Source: a virus (taxonomy: Duplodnaviria; Heunggongvirae; Uroviricota; Caudoviricetes). Taken from it: DNA of 64,000 nt. The DNA lies in the IMG/VR virus record IMGVR_UViG_3300022750_000190; one strand, written 5' to 3'. The notes under the pieces were generated by a model that did not search any database, was not told the origin of the DNA, and saw only the letters and a program-made list of their open reading frames with translations. Shown here piece after piece: positions 2,991-34,667 of this stretch. Position 1 is the stretch's first letter, and each line of letters opens with the position of its first letter. The translations under genes were made by a program, and so were the position numbers.

Positions 2991-3053
2991 AAAATATTTT
3001 CTTAATGCTAAATTATAATGCTCCAAGTGTTTGAAAAATAAGTAAAAAAGTTG

Positions 3054-3082
3054 TTGACAAGAGTTTCGAAAGACGTTAAGAT
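3054..3082 (+). promoter_or_regulatory. sigma70-like promoter TTGACA-17-TAAGAT upstream of tRNA-Ser
   Basis: TTGACA at 3054-3059 and TAAGAT at 3077-3082. It shares the upstream element GAAAAATAAGTAAAA-AGTTGTTGACAAG with the promoter at 4521. Confidence 0.55.
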
Positions 3083-3113
3083 AGTTACACAAAGCAAGAA
3101 AATGTAATAATAT

Positions 3114-3201
3114 GGATGAATGGCCGAGTGGTTTAAGGCAGCAGTCTTGAAAACTGCCGGGTGTAACAGCCCCTAGAGTTCGAATCTCTATTCATCCGCC
3201 A
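3114..3201 (+). tRNA. tRNA-Ser(UGA), type II, CCA encoded
   Basis: Acceptor GGAUGAA/UUCAUCC, anticodon stem GCAGU/ACUGC with loop CUUGAAA, long variable arm, T-arm TAGAGTTCGAATCTCTA, G73, CCA. Confidence 0.85.
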
Positions 3202-3205
3202 ATTT

Positions 3206-3291
3206 GGGAAGTAGTTTAGCGGTTAAAACATCAAGACTCCTGCAGGCTGAGTTTTGAAGATGGGACAGTTCGAATCTGTCCTTTCCCACCA
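3206..3291 (+). tRNA. atypical tRNA-like gene (extended anticodon arm; anticodon not assignable)
   Basis: Acceptor GGGAAGU/CUUUCCC, D-arm GTTTAGCGGTTAAAAC, T-arm GACAGTTCGAATCTGTC, A73 and CCA are all tRNA-like. The anticodon region folds as a 9-bp stem UCAAGACUC/GAGUUUUGA with a 9-nt loop CUGCAGGCU. Confidence 0.35.
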
Positions 3292-3428
3292 GTTATGTGG
3301 CTTAGTCAGCGACACACCTAACCAAGAGGCTTAAGACTCTAATTAGTGGTGGTCAGGATTGTTTACGCTGGCAAACTCCTTTAGCGGGGAGATCTGAGGG
3401 TTCGAGACCCTATGGCTGCGTCGAAAAT
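3292..3428 (+). other. unassigned structured segment with an orphan T-arm-like motif (GGGTTCGAGACCC)
   Basis: T-arm-like hairpin at about 3396-3413. No complementary acceptor 5' strand was found by hand within 130 nt. Confidence 0.2.
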
Positions 3429-3505
3429 TGGTATACGGCTCTGGTGAAGAGTGTGAATCGGTCACTTAATCATGTATGTAGGTTCGAGTCCTACTATACC
3501 AGCCA
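3429..3505 (+). tRNA. tRNA-like gene, 77 nt, CCA encoded; anticodon arm could not be folded by hand
   Basis: Perfect acceptor UGGUAUA/UAUACCA, D-arm GCTC-TGGTGAA-GAGT, T-arm GTAGGTTCGAGTCCTAC, G73 and CCA. The 24-nt middle gives no canonical 5-bp stem with a 7-nt loop. Confidence 0.4.
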
Positions 3506-3604
3506 GTTTTAAATGAGATGGCGGTTCAATGCCGCTTCTGGCTCTTGCAAGTTCCGGCTGGGGTTGGTAGTATAATTTGGTAATTACGCATTTAAAACAT
3601 TTTT

Positions 3605-3681
3605 GCGTCCGTAGCTCAGTTGGATAGAGCATCCGCCTTCTAAGCGGATGGCCACTGGTTCGAGTCCAGTCGGACGCACCA
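3605..3681 (+). tRNA. tRNA-Arg(UCU), CCA encoded (copy 1 of 2)
   Basis: Acceptor GCGUCCG/CGGACGC, D-arm GCTCAGTTGGATAGAGC, anticodon stem UCCGC/GCGGA with loop CUUCUAA, T-arm ACTGGTTCGAGTCCAGT, A73, CCA. Confidence 0.85.
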
Positions 3682-3710
3682 AATCTAAAATGAAGCTTTC
3701 ATAGATTATT

Positions 3711-4243
3711 TTAGACGAGTCCTTCGGGACGCTGCATTATCGTCACAAGTGTTATCCAATATGGCAACTTCTATTGGATGAACGACGATATTGTAGGTTG
3801 GAAGTTGCAAAATTCAGGATTTAAAGAACGGTAAAACCAATGCTGATATAGGTTGGTTTTGGGCTAGTCCTTCGGGGCGCTGCATTATCGCCCAAGCGTC
3901 AATCAATATGGCAACTTCTATTGATTGAACGACGATAGTGCAGTTTTGAAGTTGTGATTTTTGTTCCAAAATACGATAGAACTATGTTTTATCCAATCCT
4001 TCGGGGTGCTTAAATATTGTCAAAGTGTCAAATAACATGGCAACTTCTGTTATATGAACGATGATATTTCGGTTTGGGAGTTGCAAGATTTGATGTTGTA
4101 AAGAACGGTAAAGGCAGTGCTGATATAGACTGACTTTGGGCTAGTCCTTCGGGGCGCTGTTACAATGCCGGTGTGTCAATCAGTATGGTGTCTTCTGTTG
4201 ATTGAATGACGTTGCTAACAGTTAGGGAAGACACATTTTTTTT
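3711..4243 (+). ncRNA. tandem array of four homologous structured RNA elements of about 140 nt, organised as a duplicated dimer, ending in an intrinsic terminator
   Basis: Units begin near 3717, 3867, 3996 and 4144, each with a UUCG-capped hairpin GUCC-UUCG-GGAC. They share a long-range helix (GCUGCAUUAUCG...CGACGAUAUUG) and an internal hairpin. The 19-mer CTAGTCCTTCGGGGCGCTG is identical at 3863 and 4141. Compensatory changes keep pairing (GCAACUUC/GAAGUUGC in units 1-3 versus GUGUCUUC/GAAGACAC in unit 4). U8 tract at 4236-4243. Confidence 0.5.
4187..4243 (+). terminator. intrinsic terminator closing the structured-RNA array
   Basis: Stem GTGTCTTC...GAAGACAC with a nested CTGTT/AACAG hairpin, followed by TTTTTTTT. 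Confidence 0.5.
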
Positions 4244-4275
4244 GTTACATTATTTTGTCACGAAGAGAGGTTATT

Positions 4276-4485
4276 ATGTCATTAGTTGAATTTGGTTTGA
4301 ATACAGGTTTTAATTATCGTCTTCAAAAAGATGCTGATGCTATTAATGATAAATACAATAACAAAATCAAAAACACTTCTTTTCGTGGTGAAATTGTAAA
4401 ACTTGATACACAAAGGCGTGATGAATTAAGCAAATTGCATACTTCACATGGCAAAAAATATCAAGGTAGGGGATTCATCGAATAA
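4276..4485 (+). CDS. hypothetical small protein
   Basis: ATG at 4276 preceded by AAGAGAGG 6 nt upstream. The track ORF starts at TTG 4255. Confidence 0.45.
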   Translation: MSLVEFGLNTGFNYRLQKDADAINDKYNNKIKNTSFRGEIVKLDTQRRDELSKLHTSHGKKYQGRGFIE

Positions 4486-4520
4486 TGCTTCAAACGATTG
4501 AAAAATAAGTAAAATAGTTG

Positions 4521-4549
4521 TTGACAAGGGTGTTGCAGGACGATAGAAT
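4521..4549 (+). promoter_or_regulatory. sigma70-like promoter TTGACA-17-TAGAAT for tRNA-Leu copy 2
   Basis: TTGACA at 4521-4526 and TAGAAT at 4544-4549. The leader TAGTCACACAAAG is shared with the copies at 1819 and 30500. Confidence 0.6.
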
Positions 4550-4580
4550 AGTCACACAAAGCGAGAAGATACAAAGCAAT

Positions 4581-4665
4581 GCCCGGTTGGTGAAATTGGT
4601 AGACACATGAGACTTAAAATCTCCCGCCGAAGGGTGTGCCGGTTCGAGTCCGGCACCGGGCACCA
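4581..4665 (+). tRNA. tRNA-Leu(UAA), copy 2 (identical to 1853-1937)
   Basis: Sequence identical to copy 1. Confidence 0.85.
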
Positions 4666-4819: not shown

Positions 4820-4989
4820 GGGTACTACCCAACTGGATCATTTGGCGTTGTCATACGTGCAGACAACAATATATGTGTAAGTGGGGGTTAAGCGAGATAT
4901 TAGTATTTATTGTTGGATGAGACCGCACGTACTCGGAAAGCTTTAAAGAAAGTAGTAGCTTGTTGGTTCGATTCCATCAGTATCCGCCA
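4820..4989 (+). ncRNA. tRNA-like structured RNA A, about 170 nt, with tRNA acceptor stem, T-arm and CCA (insert-containing tRNA or stable RNA)
   Basis: 5' GGGUACU pairs with 3' AGUAUCC, followed by G73 and CCA. T-arm GTTGGTTCGATTCCATC, D-arm-like CCAA-CTGGATCAT-TTGG, and a 6-bp hairpin GUUGUC-AUACGUGCA-GACAAC. Homologous to 10644-10808. Confidence 0.5.
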
Positions 4990-5151: not shown

Positions 5152-5236
5152 GCAAGTGTAAAGGTGCGGTAGTGTAGCCTCTGGCAGCGACGGCATCAAG
5201 TTGGTTACGGTGGTTCGAATCCATCTTCTTGCACCA
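5152..5236 (+). tRNA. tRNA-like gene of about 85 nt with canonical T-arm and CCA; 5' half not resolvable by hand
   Basis: T-arm GGTGGTTCGAATCCATC, then UUCUUGC-A-CCA. The best 5' partner, GCAAGUG, pairs at 5-6 positions. The internal GGTAGTGTAGCC looks like a D-arm. Confidence 0.3.
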
Positions 5237-5290: not shown

Positions 5291-5379
5291 GGGGAGGTAG
5301 CTCAGTTGGTCAGAGCGAATAACATAGATTCTAGAGTCTCGTTATGATGTCGGTGGTTCGAATCCACCCCTCCCCACCA
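5291..5379 (+). tRNA. atypical tRNA-like gene, 89 nt, with a perfect tRNA frame but a 17-nt insertion in the anticodon arm
   Basis: Acceptor GGGGAGG/CCUCCCC, U8, D-arm GCTCAGTTGGTCAGAGC, T-arm GGTGGTTCGAATCCACC, A73, CCA. Anticodon stem AUAAC/GUUAU encloses AUAGAUUCUAGAGUCUC. Confidence 0.4.
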
Positions 5380-5394
5380 GCTTCATGAAACAAT

Positions 5395-5470
5395 TGGCGA
5401 ATAGCTCAGTTGGTAGAGCGACGGACTGTTAATCCGTTGGTCGTAGGTTCGAGTCCTACTCCGCCAGCCA
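5395..5470 (+). tRNA. tRNA-Asn(GUU), CCA encoded
   Basis: Acceptor UGGCGAA/UCCGCCA (one mismatch), D-arm GCTCAGTTGGTAGAGC, anticodon stem ACGGA/UCCGU with loop CUGUUAA, T-arm GTAGGTTCGAGTCCTAC, G73. Confidence 0.8.
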
Positions 5471-5527
5471 AACACGGCTCAACTTGTTTAGTTGTATAAA
5501 ACACTGTTGAGTTCTTTAAACCATACC

Positions 5528-5648
5528 TTTCACGCTTCTTTATAGCGCACCAGAAAGGTTATTGATTCATGGATATTTCACGCTTTTAAGCGCACCAGAA
5601 ATATCGAAAGAGAATACTTTTCACGCTTCTTGTAGGCGCACCAGAAAA
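5528..5648 (+). repeat. three tandem copies of a mini-hairpin motif TTTCACGC-loop-GCGCACCAGAAA
   Basis: Copies at about 5528-5556, 5577-5602 and 5619-5648, each a short CGC/GCG hairpin followed by CACCAGAAA. They resemble tRNA 3' acceptor-plus-CCA ends. Confidence 0.5.
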
Positions 5649-5655
5649 GTAGTTT

Positions 5656-5731: not shown

Positions 5732-5830
5732 GTTTTTGTATCAGCGTTGCCACCCTAAGCAAGGTGCGGAAAAAGGCTATTGGAACATAGAGGTTCGAAT
5801 CCTCGGCAGCGTTGGTGCAGAAAGTATTAA
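5732..5830 (+). other. degenerate tRNA-like segment: T-arm GAGGTTCGAATCCTC without a matching acceptor stem
   Basis: T-arm motif at about 5789-5806. The flanks carry a direct repeat CAGCGTTG rather than complementary strands. Confidence 0.25.
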
Positions 5831-5950
5831 ATGCAGTGAAGGTCTTTGTTTTGATCTTCTTTTCCATAATCCGACCCCCTCCTAGGATTTTGGATTAGTG
5901 TCCCACTGCTAAAGACCTCTTCAGTTTATCGAAGGGGCACTATTAAAATG
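5831..5950 (+). other. structured spacer with a long-range helix GAAGGUCUUU / AAAGACCUC and a nested AAUCC/GGAUU hairpin
   Basis: 5838-5847 is complementary to 5911-5919. A possible leader for the downstream tRNA-like gene. Confidence 0.25.
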
Positions 5951-6019
5951 CTAGACGCTCAGTCGGGAGCCATCGCATGTTAGCGATACAGTTAGGGTTC
6001 AAATCCCTTTTCTAGACCA
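5951..6019 (+). tRNA. short (about 69 nt) tRNA-like gene with a reduced D-arm; anticodon loop AUGUUAG (GUU-like)
   Basis: Anticodon arm AUCGC-AUGUUAG-GCGAU, T-arm AGGGTTCAAATCCCT, 3' UUUCUAG-A-CCA, acceptor 5 bp. The D region is only about 14 nt. Confidence 0.3.
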
Positions 6020-10643: not shown

Positions 10644-10808
10644 GGGCACTGTCTAACTGCGCAACTGGATTTGGATTGTACAACCAAAAGAAAGTTGCAA
10701 TTGGCGACAAACAGCGATACGAGTACTCTGCTTGGAACGTGTAAGTACAACACGGGAAGGGGAGGTGAAACTATCAAGTTGCTGGTTCGACTCCAGCAGT
10801 GTCTACCA
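10644..10808 (+). ncRNA. tRNA-like structured RNA B, about 165 nt, homolog of RNA A
   Basis: 5' GGGCACU pairs with 3' AGUGUCU then A73-CCA. C4-G69 here versus U4-A69 in RNA A is a compensatory change. T-arm GCTGGTTCGACTCCAGC. Shared blocks ATATGGGYACT, AACTGGAT and CGTGTAAGT. Confidence 0.5.
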
Positions 10809-33671: not shown

Positions 33672-34667
33672 ATGGCAATAATTCTAACAGGCGATAGACC
33701 AACAGGTTCCCTTCATTTAGGGCATTATATCGGCTCGCTTCGAAATCGTGTGGCGTTGCAACACGAACACACTCAATATCTGTTAATTGCCGATAATCAA
33801 GCATTAACAGATAACATGGGAAATCCCATGAAAGTTCGTGATAATATCATTGAAGTTGCAAAAGACTACCTTGCTTCTGGCATTGAACCAACTAAAACAA
33901 CTATTGCTATTCAATCTTTGCTCCCTGCAATTGCTGAATTAACTCTTTTGTATATGAACTTTGTTACTGTTTCTCGTTTAGAACGAAACCCAACAATTCG
34001 TGATGAAATCAAGTCAAGAAACTTTGGTCGTGATATTCCAGCAGGGTTCCTTGCTTATCCTGTTGCACAAGCAGCCGATATAACAGCATTTAAAGCCTCT
34101 TTAGTGCCTGTTGGTGAAGATCAAGCTCCATTGATTGAACAAGCTAACGAAGTTGTTAAAAAGGTTAACAGACAAGCTGAAAAAGAAATTCTTCCCGAAA
34201 TTACTGCTTTGATTCCAACCATTGGTAGACTTCCAAGTCTTGATGGGAAATCAAAAATGAGTAAATCTTTAGGTAATACAATCAATCTTTATTCCAGTAA
34301 TGACGAAATTACCAAAGCTGTTCGAGCTATGTTTACTGACCCAACTCATATTAAAGTATCAGATCCGGGGAAAGTTGATGGCAACGTAGTATTTACTTAC
34401 TTAGACGCTTTTGATACGAATCTTGAAGAACTTAATGCTTTGAAAGAACATTATATTCGTGGTGGACTTGGCGATTCCGTTATCAAGAAAAGGCTAACAG
34501 AGATCTTAATTGAAACATTAACTCCTATTCGTGAAAAAAGACTTCAATTGAATAATGAACACGAATATGTTCTTAGTGTATTAAAACAAGGGACAGACAT
34601 TGCAAGAGAAGTAACTCAAACCAATTTAAATGAAATCAAAAGACATTTAAATATGTTTTCTTTTTGA
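33672..34667 (+). CDS. trpS: tryptophanyl-tRNA synthetase
   Basis: HIGH-type motif TGDRPTGSLHLGHY, VPVGEDQ, YPVAQAADI and KMSKS, collinear with bacterial TrpRS. 331 aa. Confidence 0.85.
   Translation: MAIILTGDRPTGSLHLGHYIGSLRNRVALQHEHTQYLLIADNQALTDNMGNPMKVRDNIIEVAKDYLASGIEPTKTTIAIQSLLPAIAELTLLYMNFVTVSRLERNPTIRDEIKSRNFGRDIPAGFLAYPVAQAADITAFKASLVPVGEDQAPLIEQANEVVKKVNRQAEKEILPEITALIPTIGRLPSLDGKSKMSKSLGNTINLYSSNDEITKAVRAMFTDPTHIKVSDPGKVDGNVVFTYLDAFDTNLEELNALKEHYIRGGLGDSVIKKRLTEILIETLTPIREKRLQLNNEHEYVLSVLKQGTDIAREVTQTNLNEIKRHLNMFSF

Follow-up and report, generated by a model that had tools for sequence, protein, structure and literature searches.

What is the function of a gene that is located in a phage transfer RNA (tRNA) operon and has the shape of a tRNA, if its anticodon arm has been replaced by a structure that appears unsuited to reading a codon? 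This question is posed by a tRNA-shaped gene, here called E1, at positions 3205-3291 of a 64,000-nucleotide stretch of tailed-phage DNA (IMG/VR record IMGVR_UViG_3300022750_000190), the whole of which is referred to below as the window. We conclude firmly that E1 is of tRNA origin, that it belongs to a tRNA operon and that it is unable to decode. As to what it does instead, the explanation that we favour, and that we put forward tentatively as falling a little short of probable, is that E1 gives rise to a processed, CCA-ended, non-decoding tRNA mimic that acts through its tRNA body.

The sequence of E1 is UGGGAAGUAGUUUAGCGGUUAAAACAUCAAGACUCCUGCAGGCUGAGUUUUGAAGAUGGGACAGUUCGAAUCUGUCCUUUCCCACCA, and its parts are listed here with their lengths in nucleotides (nt) or base pairs (bp).

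3205..3291, plus strand: E1, a tRNA-shaped gene, recognised by its Rfam match, its fold, ARAGORN in intron mode and its pair probabilities
3206..3211, plus strand: 5' strand of the acceptor stem, GGGAAG, which pairs with 3282-3287 (UUUCCC); G3211·U3282 is weak
3214..3229, plus strand: D arm, GUUU / AGCGGUUA / AAAC, carrying A14, G18, G19 and A21
3231..3257, plus strand: extended central arm with a 9-nt loop; its 9-bp stem comprises 8 Watson-Crick pairs plus G3235·U3253
3240..3248, plus strand: the 9-nt loop, CUGCAGGCU, which contains the palindrome CUGCAG (CCUGCAGG when C3239 is added)
3263..3281, plus strand: T arm, GGACAG / UUCGAAU / CUGUCC, of 6 bp including G3263-C3281, with the canonical 5-bp core at 3264-3268 / 3276-3280
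3288..3291, plus strand: discriminator A and encoded CCA, read from the sequence

The Rfam tRNA model RF00005 matches positions 3205-3288 with 37.3 bits, above its gathering threshold of 29, whereas ARAGORN, which the earlier note on this DNA had proposed as a check, makes no call at E1 at default settings. By the same Rfam model the canonical tRNAs of the window score 49-74 bits. All arms of E1 are aligned by the covariance model, and a 10-nt excess falls in the anticodon loop (19 nt versus the expected 9). Both the minimum free energy (MFE) and the centroid folds are cloverleafs, in which about 25 of 25 helical pairs are intact. The elbow and core set is likewise complete by sequence and covariance alignment together: U8, A14, G18G19, A21, G53-C61, the T54-Psi55-C56 positions, A58, A73 and CCA. 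Covariance models for transfer-messenger RNA (tmRNA) and YrlA find no match over E1 at E <= 10. The amino acid identity of E1 is less clear, since its isotype features are mixed. U1/GGG and CUG point to Gln, the AGCGGUUA D loop and GCA point to Cys, and ARAGORN points to Arg though A20 is absent. To call E1 at all, ARAGORN has to be run in intron mode or with lowered thresholds, and the identities that it then assigns, Arg(CCU) versus Gln(CUG), conflict.

The earlier note had described E1 as a tRNA frame in which an arm of 9 bp with a 9-nt loop takes the place of the anticodon arm, and the Rfam score, the MFE and centroid folds and the pair probabilities all bear this out. The two strands of the helix, UCAAGACUC (3231-3239) and GAGUUUUGA (3249-3257), form nine pairs with probabilities of 0.87-0.998. 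The excess of about 10 nt that the same note had estimated also stands, because the central arm spans 27 nt and the usual arm 17 nt. When the central 33 nt of E1 are shuffled, a 9-bp helix exactly at the position of the anticodon stem arises in 1.6e-4 of shuffles, and four extra stacked pairs, given a 5-bp stem, arise in 2.8%. Decoding requires a 5-bp stem and a 7-nt loop in which U33 is present and position 37 is a purine, and E1 has neither this stem nor this loop. Because its 9-bp stem sets the loop about 4 bp past the anticodon position, as judged from tRNA geometry, E1 should be unable to read codons. As a separate observation, the first eight nucleotides of the arm's 5' strand (3231-3238, UCAAGACU) are the exact reverse complement of tRNA-Ser positions 3143-3150 (AGUCUUGA), anticodon UGA included; the rough chance of any such 8-mer complement is ~0.025.

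Outside the central arm, E1 shares with canonical tRNA (RF00005) its acceptor, D and T arms, elbow, discriminator and CCA, and differs by a shifted junction between acceptor and T stem. For this reason the description of all these parts as canonical needs one correction: it holds for the D arm, the T arm, A73 and CCA, and it fails for the acceptor. In a 7/5 register the seventh acceptor pair would be a U3212·C3281 mismatch. Both the thermodynamic and the covariance model prefer G3263-C3281 (probability 0.996), and U3212 and A3213 occupy positions 8 and 9. The favoured fold has an acceptor of 5-6 bp and a T stem of 6-7 bp, in place of the 7 bp and 5 bp of a decoding tRNA. Regardless, the coaxial acceptor/T stack keeps its 12 bp, from G3206:C3287 to G3268:C3276, with the junction moved by 1-2 bp and the pairs split ~6/6 rather than 7/5. 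ARAGORN's other register (U3205·C3287, G3211-C3281) has a probability of about zero in the thermodynamic model. U3205 is able to pair with A3288, and the mature RNA is likely to comprise G3206-A3291, or 86 nt.

E1 lies within a tRNA array that extends from 1.8 to 7.4 kb and contains 12 tRNAs called by ARAGORN, and it is on the same strand. Two features of its immediate upstream region define the unit to which it belongs.

3114..3201, plus strand: tRNA-Ser(UGA), canonical and ending in CCA (ARAGORN; Rfam 56.4 bits)
3054..3082, plus strand: sigma-70-type promoter of the tRNA-Ser/E1 unit, TTGACA-17-TAAGAT, inside a conserved module of ~89 nt

The promoter module, with the layout TTGAAAAATA...GTTGTTGACAAG-N17-TAGAAT/TAAGAT-AGTnnCACAAAG, is present in three copies (1750-1838, 3015-3103 and 4482-4570), each ahead of a tRNA sub-operon, and nowhere else in the window. 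Only 3-4 nt separate tRNA-Ser(UGA) from E1, and no terminator-like site is present downstream of E1 before position 5838. The placement of E1 directly after tRNA-Ser in the same transcript, as first proposed, thus agrees with the gap, the shared upstream promoter and the lack of a terminator-like site, and co-transcription is the probable outcome. An independent sequencing run (SRR7968055) contains positions 3622-4608 of this array at 100% identity, and the phage is also 100% identical in ERZ27228643.

These features suggest how a non-decoding mimic could be made and used. E1 would be transcribed from the promoter at 3054-3082 along with tRNA-Ser(UGA). Because the acceptor/T stack, the D/T elbow nucleotides, the discriminator and the CCA are intact, the tRNA maturation machinery of the host (RNase P, 3' trimming and CCA repair) would most likely excise it as a stable tRNA-shaped RNA of ~86 nt. 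The closed arm of 9 bp and 9 nt would preclude codon reading, and an RNA that cannot decode would be expected to act via its tRNA body as a mimic. In this role E1 may tie up proteins for which the shape of a tRNA is the recognition signal, defence nucleases and tRNA-modifying enzymes being examples. Another possibility is that the tRNA body serves to express the central hairpin stably, as a module. Engineered tRNA scaffolds and the viral tRNAs (vtRNAs) of murine gammaherpesvirus 68 use the tRNA body in this way, for processing and stability, with an anticodon arm that is replaced or irrelevant. These are artificial or eukaryotic-virus systems, however, and the E1 hairpin is at most a putative functional cargo.

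E1 is not unique in the window, where at least eight other aberrant tRNA-shaped elements are found. These include the following.

5291..5379, plus strand: sibling element of 89 nt with a perfect 7/5 tRNA frame, A73 and CCA, and the same architecture as E1
3349-3423: E2, directly downstream of E1 after a 57-nt spacer, with a 6-nt anticodon loop and a T-stem mismatch and without CCA
3429-3505: E3, Rfam tRNA score 30.5 bits, with a disrupted arm and a U1-A72/G73/CCA frame closest to that of the tRNA-Asn at 5395
5166-5236, 5744-5816 and ~5941-6008: partial tRNA-like elements with a T arm and a paired acceptor, CCA in two of them, and non-canonical D and anticodon regions
4820-4989 and 10644-10808: two paralogous RNAs of ~165 nt with tRNA-like acceptor and T arms, G3·U70 and CCA

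The sibling at 5291-5379 is the closest relative of E1 in the window. Its central arm of 29 nt consists of 5 bp, an internal loop, another 5 bp and a CUAG loop (apex UCUAGA), and forms a near-palindrome. Again the covariance alignment assigns the excess to the anticodon loop, at 19 nt instead of 7. ARAGORN labels this element tRNA-Met(CAT), which requires an A at position 33. Its frame resembles that of two elements from other phages discussed below, tRNA-OTHER #1 of phage Milchi (74% identity) and pseudo-tRNA-4 of phage KVP40. The two ~165-nt RNAs differ from each other by compensatory changes, and the copy at 10644-10808 has its own promoter (TTGACA-17-TAGTAT). Possible counterparts of the two are T4 rnaC or the KVP40 pseudo-tRNAs; identification of the two as tmRNA was considered and is unsupported by ARAGORN (default settings) and Rfam.

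Comparable elements are found elsewhere. The sibling led us to Pseudomonas phage Milchi, whose array contains tRNAs, small open reading frames (ORFs), an HNH gene and three tRNA-OTHER genes. The first of these combines a frame like that of 5291-5379 with a central hairpin of 6 bp whose cap is GCAA, the second has a 32-nt central arm, and the third has a 13-nt loop. Counterparts of all three are present, unannotated, in phage Astolliot. Between the two phages the second and third genes are 97.8% and 98.7% identical, whereas the adjacent spacers are 56-75% identical and rich in insertions and deletions; the canonical tRNAs are 85-100% identical, with the exception of one tRNA-Asn, next to the HNH gene, for which alignment fails (45%). 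The differences in the first gene include a compensatory change from G-C to A-U, a GNRA loop that is kept (GCAA to GUAA) and a re-paired T stem. These Otagovirus genes resemble E1 as tRNA frames of 79-93 nt with non-anticodon central arms, located in a tRNA array and conserved as islands. The third ends in CUUUCCC-ACCA, as E1 does, and the central arm of the second shares AGGCUGA with E1, although matches this short could be due to chance. Unlike E1, the Otagovirus genes have clean 7/5 frames, and BLAST reveals no homology between them and E1. Reciprocal searches with the Milchi elements returned only Milchi and Astolliot.

A similar design is seen in tRNA-Pseudo-4 of KVP40 and its homologs in Schizotequatrovirus and Cronobacter phage S13, which carry a tRNA frame with D and T arms, A73 and CCA in a tRNA cluster and have the anticodon loop replaced. 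An AAAGA/UCUUU stem around ~56 nt is invariant in 12 of the 12 aligned phages, and the T stem covaries (these helices were read by eye, as the automatic RNAalifold structure was unreliable and was not used). The acceptor of this element has 7 bp, and its insert of ~56 nt forms several hairpins, in contrast to the 10 nt that E1 incorporates in one continuous helix; the frame is closer to that of 5291-5379 than to that of E1. The tandem KVP40 pseudo-tRNAs 5 and 4 are conserved across Schizotequatrovirus, where they are annotated variously as tRNA-Asn, Phe, Cys or Ser, as 'hypothetical protein', or not at all. In phage T4, rnaC (species 1) and rnaD (species 2) are likewise non-decoding and lie within a tRNA cluster, on the same strand and directly after a tRNA (tRNA-Arg). 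The two ends of the rnaC RNA pair in the manner of an acceptor, and its T arm (CCGGG-UUCGAAU-CCCGG) is of the tRNA type. At 139 and 119 nt, with large central inserts, no canonical D arm and no encoded CCA, the two T4 RNAs differ from E1 and show no similarity to it in sequence. The tRNA-Und of a Vibrio phage also keeps a tRNA-type acceptor and T arm around a central region that is not a normal anticodon arm.

E1 shares with these RNAs its location in a tRNA cluster, on the same strand, and an acceptor and T arm that flank an abnormal central region. By architecture and location it belongs with the T4 species 1 and 2 RNAs, the KVP40 pseudo-tRNAs and the tRNA-OTHER genes, without being a sequence homolog of any of them; a search of 50,697 phage records gave no homology between E1 and a described tRNA-like RNA of a phage tRNA cluster. 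The self-paired extension of 10 nt in E1 is the smallest insert among the elements compared.

Orthologs of E1, whose comparison had been suggested at the outset, were sought with BLAST, with DNA patterns and through the proteins encoded nearby. None was found in GenBank phages, IMG/VR, JGI contigs (by pattern scan) or GTDB genomes. BLAST against GenBank phages with positions 3000-3700, positions 1-25000 or E1 alone gave generic tRNA matches only, and E1 gave nothing significant against the 50,697 phage records. Three exact or gapped patterns for E1 or the neighbouring tRNA-Ser had zero matches in IMG/VR, and the promoter-module pattern had zero matches in IMG/VR and GTDB genomes. A D-loop/T-loop pattern with an enlarged gap matched 17 times in JGI metagenomes, with no E1 homolog among the matches. 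Protein-anchored searches with neighbouring ORFs recovered no E1 locus, and a spurious reading frame across E2 and E3, used as a query for fragmentary contigs, retrieved nothing. The ORF at 2706-2990 has one homolog (65% identity), on contigs of 934 bp that end before any E1 position; the phage that carries it is represented in ERR15812191, SRR33317134 and SRR18365525. In this relative, the only one found, the homolog precedes tRNA-Met rather than the promoter, tRNA-Ser and E1, and hence the order of the array differs. The relative also carries a tRNA-Gln(UUG)-like gene with two acceptor-stem mismatches (L002:417-494), where the window has tRNA-Met at the corresponding position. A second candidate relative, "Acinetobacter phage MD-2021a" (CAKLQH020000005.1), was discarded as a mislabelled bacterial assembly that carries rne, rluC, hemN and other such genes.

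The array itself is subject to change. Three identical or near-identical copies of tRNA-Leu(UAA) are present (1853, 4581 and 30511; 99% identity), along with two identical copies of one tRNA-Met (5002 and 7319; 100%) and two diverged copies of tRNA-Arg(UCU) (3605 and 24737). The promoter flanks of the tRNA-Leu and tRNA-Met duplicates are 63-82% identical, and since the tRNAs themselves are 99-100% identical, neutral sequence in the array must diverge. These duplicates, together with an HNH endonuclease gene at 203-1285, are consistent with ongoing segmental duplication.

Three options for E1 were originally offered: a pseudo-tRNA, a tRNA mimic and an insert-bearing tRNA. The last is the least supported, and the first two are inseparable for E1, which has no ortholog in any collection searched. 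It is very improbable that E1 is a tRNA from which an 8-10-nt segment is removed, or whose arm is remodelled, after transcription to give tRNA-Arg(CCU) or tRNA-Gln(CUG). ARAGORN does propose such products, in intron mode a tRNA-Arg(CCU) with the loop CUCCUGC and an 8-nt intron (AGGCUGAG) after position 38/39, and with a lowered threshold a tRNA-Gln(CUG). This intron is the only means by which ARAGORN obtains a 7-nt loop, and the canonical fold that the earlier note named as fatal to its own was not recovered by the covariance model. Removal of CCUGCAGG likewise leaves a well-formed loop, CUCUGAG, with the anticodon CUG, and the extra bases pair with the anticodon loop and lengthen the helix as they do in intron-containing pre-tRNAs of archaea and eukaryotes. 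However, E1 lacks a bulge-helix-bulge motif: its 9-bp helix is continuous and free of bulges, and the 3' cut site would fall within it. The promoters are of bacterial type, and no splicing endonuclease, RNA ligase, RtcB or Pnkp is encoded among the 89 ORFs of the window (64 kb of a 604-kb genome). An insert of 8-10 nt is also 20-fold below any group I intron (~200 nt or more), and no intron or ribozyme family matches E1 at E <= 10. When contiguous 10-nt deletions of the arm were enumerated, none yielded a 17-nt arm with U33, and 8-nt deletions yielded two plausible loops, CUCCUGC or CUCUGAG, both on a 6-bp anticodon stem and in products with a 6-nt variable loop. Element 5291-5379 gives no canonical loop by any contiguous deletion. 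That E1 decodes directly with its loop expanded to 9 nt, GCA after U3241 being one example of an anticodon, or that it acts as a frameshift-type decoder, is scarcely credible. The start of the loop, C-U-GCA-G, fits Y32-U33-NNN-R37, and suppressor tRNAs with 8- and 9-nt loops exist, but a stem of 9 bp rather than 5 would hold the loop about 4 bp too distant from the elbow for decoding in the ribosomal A site. Moreover, the default ARAGORN model rejects E1, and stop-codon recoding is not indicated in the window. A suppressor role was rejected on the same grounds, as ORF length gains nothing under any recoding and the genetic code of the window is standard.

A far more serious competitor is that E1 is a young pseudogene, in which an inverted duplication (a template switch in the quasi-palindromic anticodon stem-loop) closed the loop and the A-run of the acceptor lost one base. 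Such a gene would still be transcribed and perhaps processed, yet would be functionless and bound for decay or deletion. We regard this origin as a real possibility that nonetheless stops well short of probable. The extra bases AGG-CUG-AG correspond to the neighbouring CUCCU in reverse complement, with CUG as an interruption, and the array around them is duplicating and turning over and has a different order in the only relative found. A further set of findings weighs directly against a functional mimic. The arm of E1 is a near-perfect 24-nt palindrome (UCAAGACUCCUG / CAGGAGU[U/C]UUGA) plus 3 nt, and the added pairing could have arisen automatically through inverted duplication rather than by selection; the arm of 5291-5379 is also a near-palindrome without a designed loop. 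The one-base imbalance of the acceptor (GGGAAG versus CUUUCCC) resembles a lesion, and a clean 7/5 frame is found in every conserved analogue. Both neighbours, E2 and E3, look degraded, the whole fold of E1 reaches only z = -1.66 against shuffles, and orthologs are absent from the collections searched. On the other side, no single contiguous 10-nt deletion restores an arm of 5 bp and 7 nt with U33, the loops left by 8-nt removals sit only on 6-bp stems, and E1 lacks the A20 expected of tRNA-Arg by the established identity rules of arginyl-tRNA synthetase. A neutral pseudogene is expected to show helix-breaking and core substitutions spread over all arms, and E1 shows no such spread. Its identity to any tRNA of the window is at most 69%, yet, the insert aside, no helix is broken, and the 71 kb examined contain no close parent; intact helices and core would be seen in a very young pseudogene too. 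These intact features at such low identity, the same-design sibling at 5291-5379 and comparable genes that are conserved in three other phage lineages argue for the maintenance of E1, and the architecturally similar elements of other phages make a mimic somewhat more likely. Finally, E1 might be kept mainly as a processing signal, whose folded body offers sites for RNase P and 3'-end cleavage in a polycistronic transcript and has no role in trans. The packing of the genes at 3-4 nt in one transcription unit without a terminator fits this view, as does the restriction of the canonical parts of E1 to those read by processing enzymes, and the T4 tRNA cluster is known to yield dimeric precursors whose processing steps depend on one another. 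We consider it improbable, however, because tRNA-Ser has processing determinants of its own and because a processing signal requires neither a full D arm nor a long perfect central helix.

The non-decoding mimic that we favour may have a wider counterpart. E1, element 5291-5379, the ~165-nt RNAs and their Otagovirus, KVP40-like and T4-like counterparts could form one class of uncleavable decoys for tRNA-targeting nucleases or tRNA-binding toxins, or of scaffolds that deliver effector hairpins, although we judge this unlikely as it stands. If true, it would provide a function for the T4 species 1 and 2 RNAs, for which, to our knowledge, none has been explained in 50 years. Phage tRNA arrays are now viewed as counter-defence against immune systems that cleave tRNAs, and tRNA look-alikes in these arrays are routinely written off as "pseudo" or "tRNA-OTHER". 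E1 is a very clean case of such a look-alike, in which the parts seen by tRNA-processing and tRNA-binding proteins are kept and the decoding part alone is lost. Taken alone it is unsurprising, but given the pattern of frames that are kept, decoding arms that are replaced and conserved islands elsewhere, a role as decoy or scaffold can be put to the test. Should these RNAs prove to be functional mimics, phages would have a class of small RNAs that has been overlooked, and one through which the function of the T4 RNAs could be approached. Should E1 be only a pseudogene of recent origin, it would exemplify a specific mutational route, inverted duplication within an anticodon hairpin, in an array that turns over fast.

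The window, with a G+C content of ~32%, is part of a metagenomic phage contig of 604,209 bp from the ENA, k141_1005676. Besides numerous small unknown ORFs, it encodes an HNH endonuclease, a bacterial-type tryptophanyl-tRNA synthetase, a thymidylate synthase, a T4 endonuclease V-like glycosylase and a phage L5 gp82 domain, which is the profile of a huge phage. The synthetase, at 33672-34667, is 65% identical to that of Acinetobacter, and this likeness hints at a host related to Moraxellaceae.

Several other RNAs of possible interest were observed. Between tRNA-Arg and a 69-aa ORF, positions 3721-4240 hold four tandem units of ~130-150 nt that are 63-78% identical and start with UCCUUCGGGG(C)GCUG...; these look like a repeated structured RNA, and none has a match in Rfam. 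At 5523-5650, three short repeats ending in ...GCGCACCAGAAA each consist of a small hairpin with CACCA after it, in the manner of acceptor minihelices. A common GANTC/GAGTC site motif in the hairpins was considered and dismissed, since its counts equal expectation. Among the contigs from the JGI pattern scan, GOLLD RNAs and a tmRNA lie beside tRNA arrays (L016:2076-2477, L021:5150-5630 and L016:4073-4467), and three contigs (L006, L014 and L021) share a conserved RNA that resembles a tRNA fragment and shows compensatory changes in an 8-bp hairpin.

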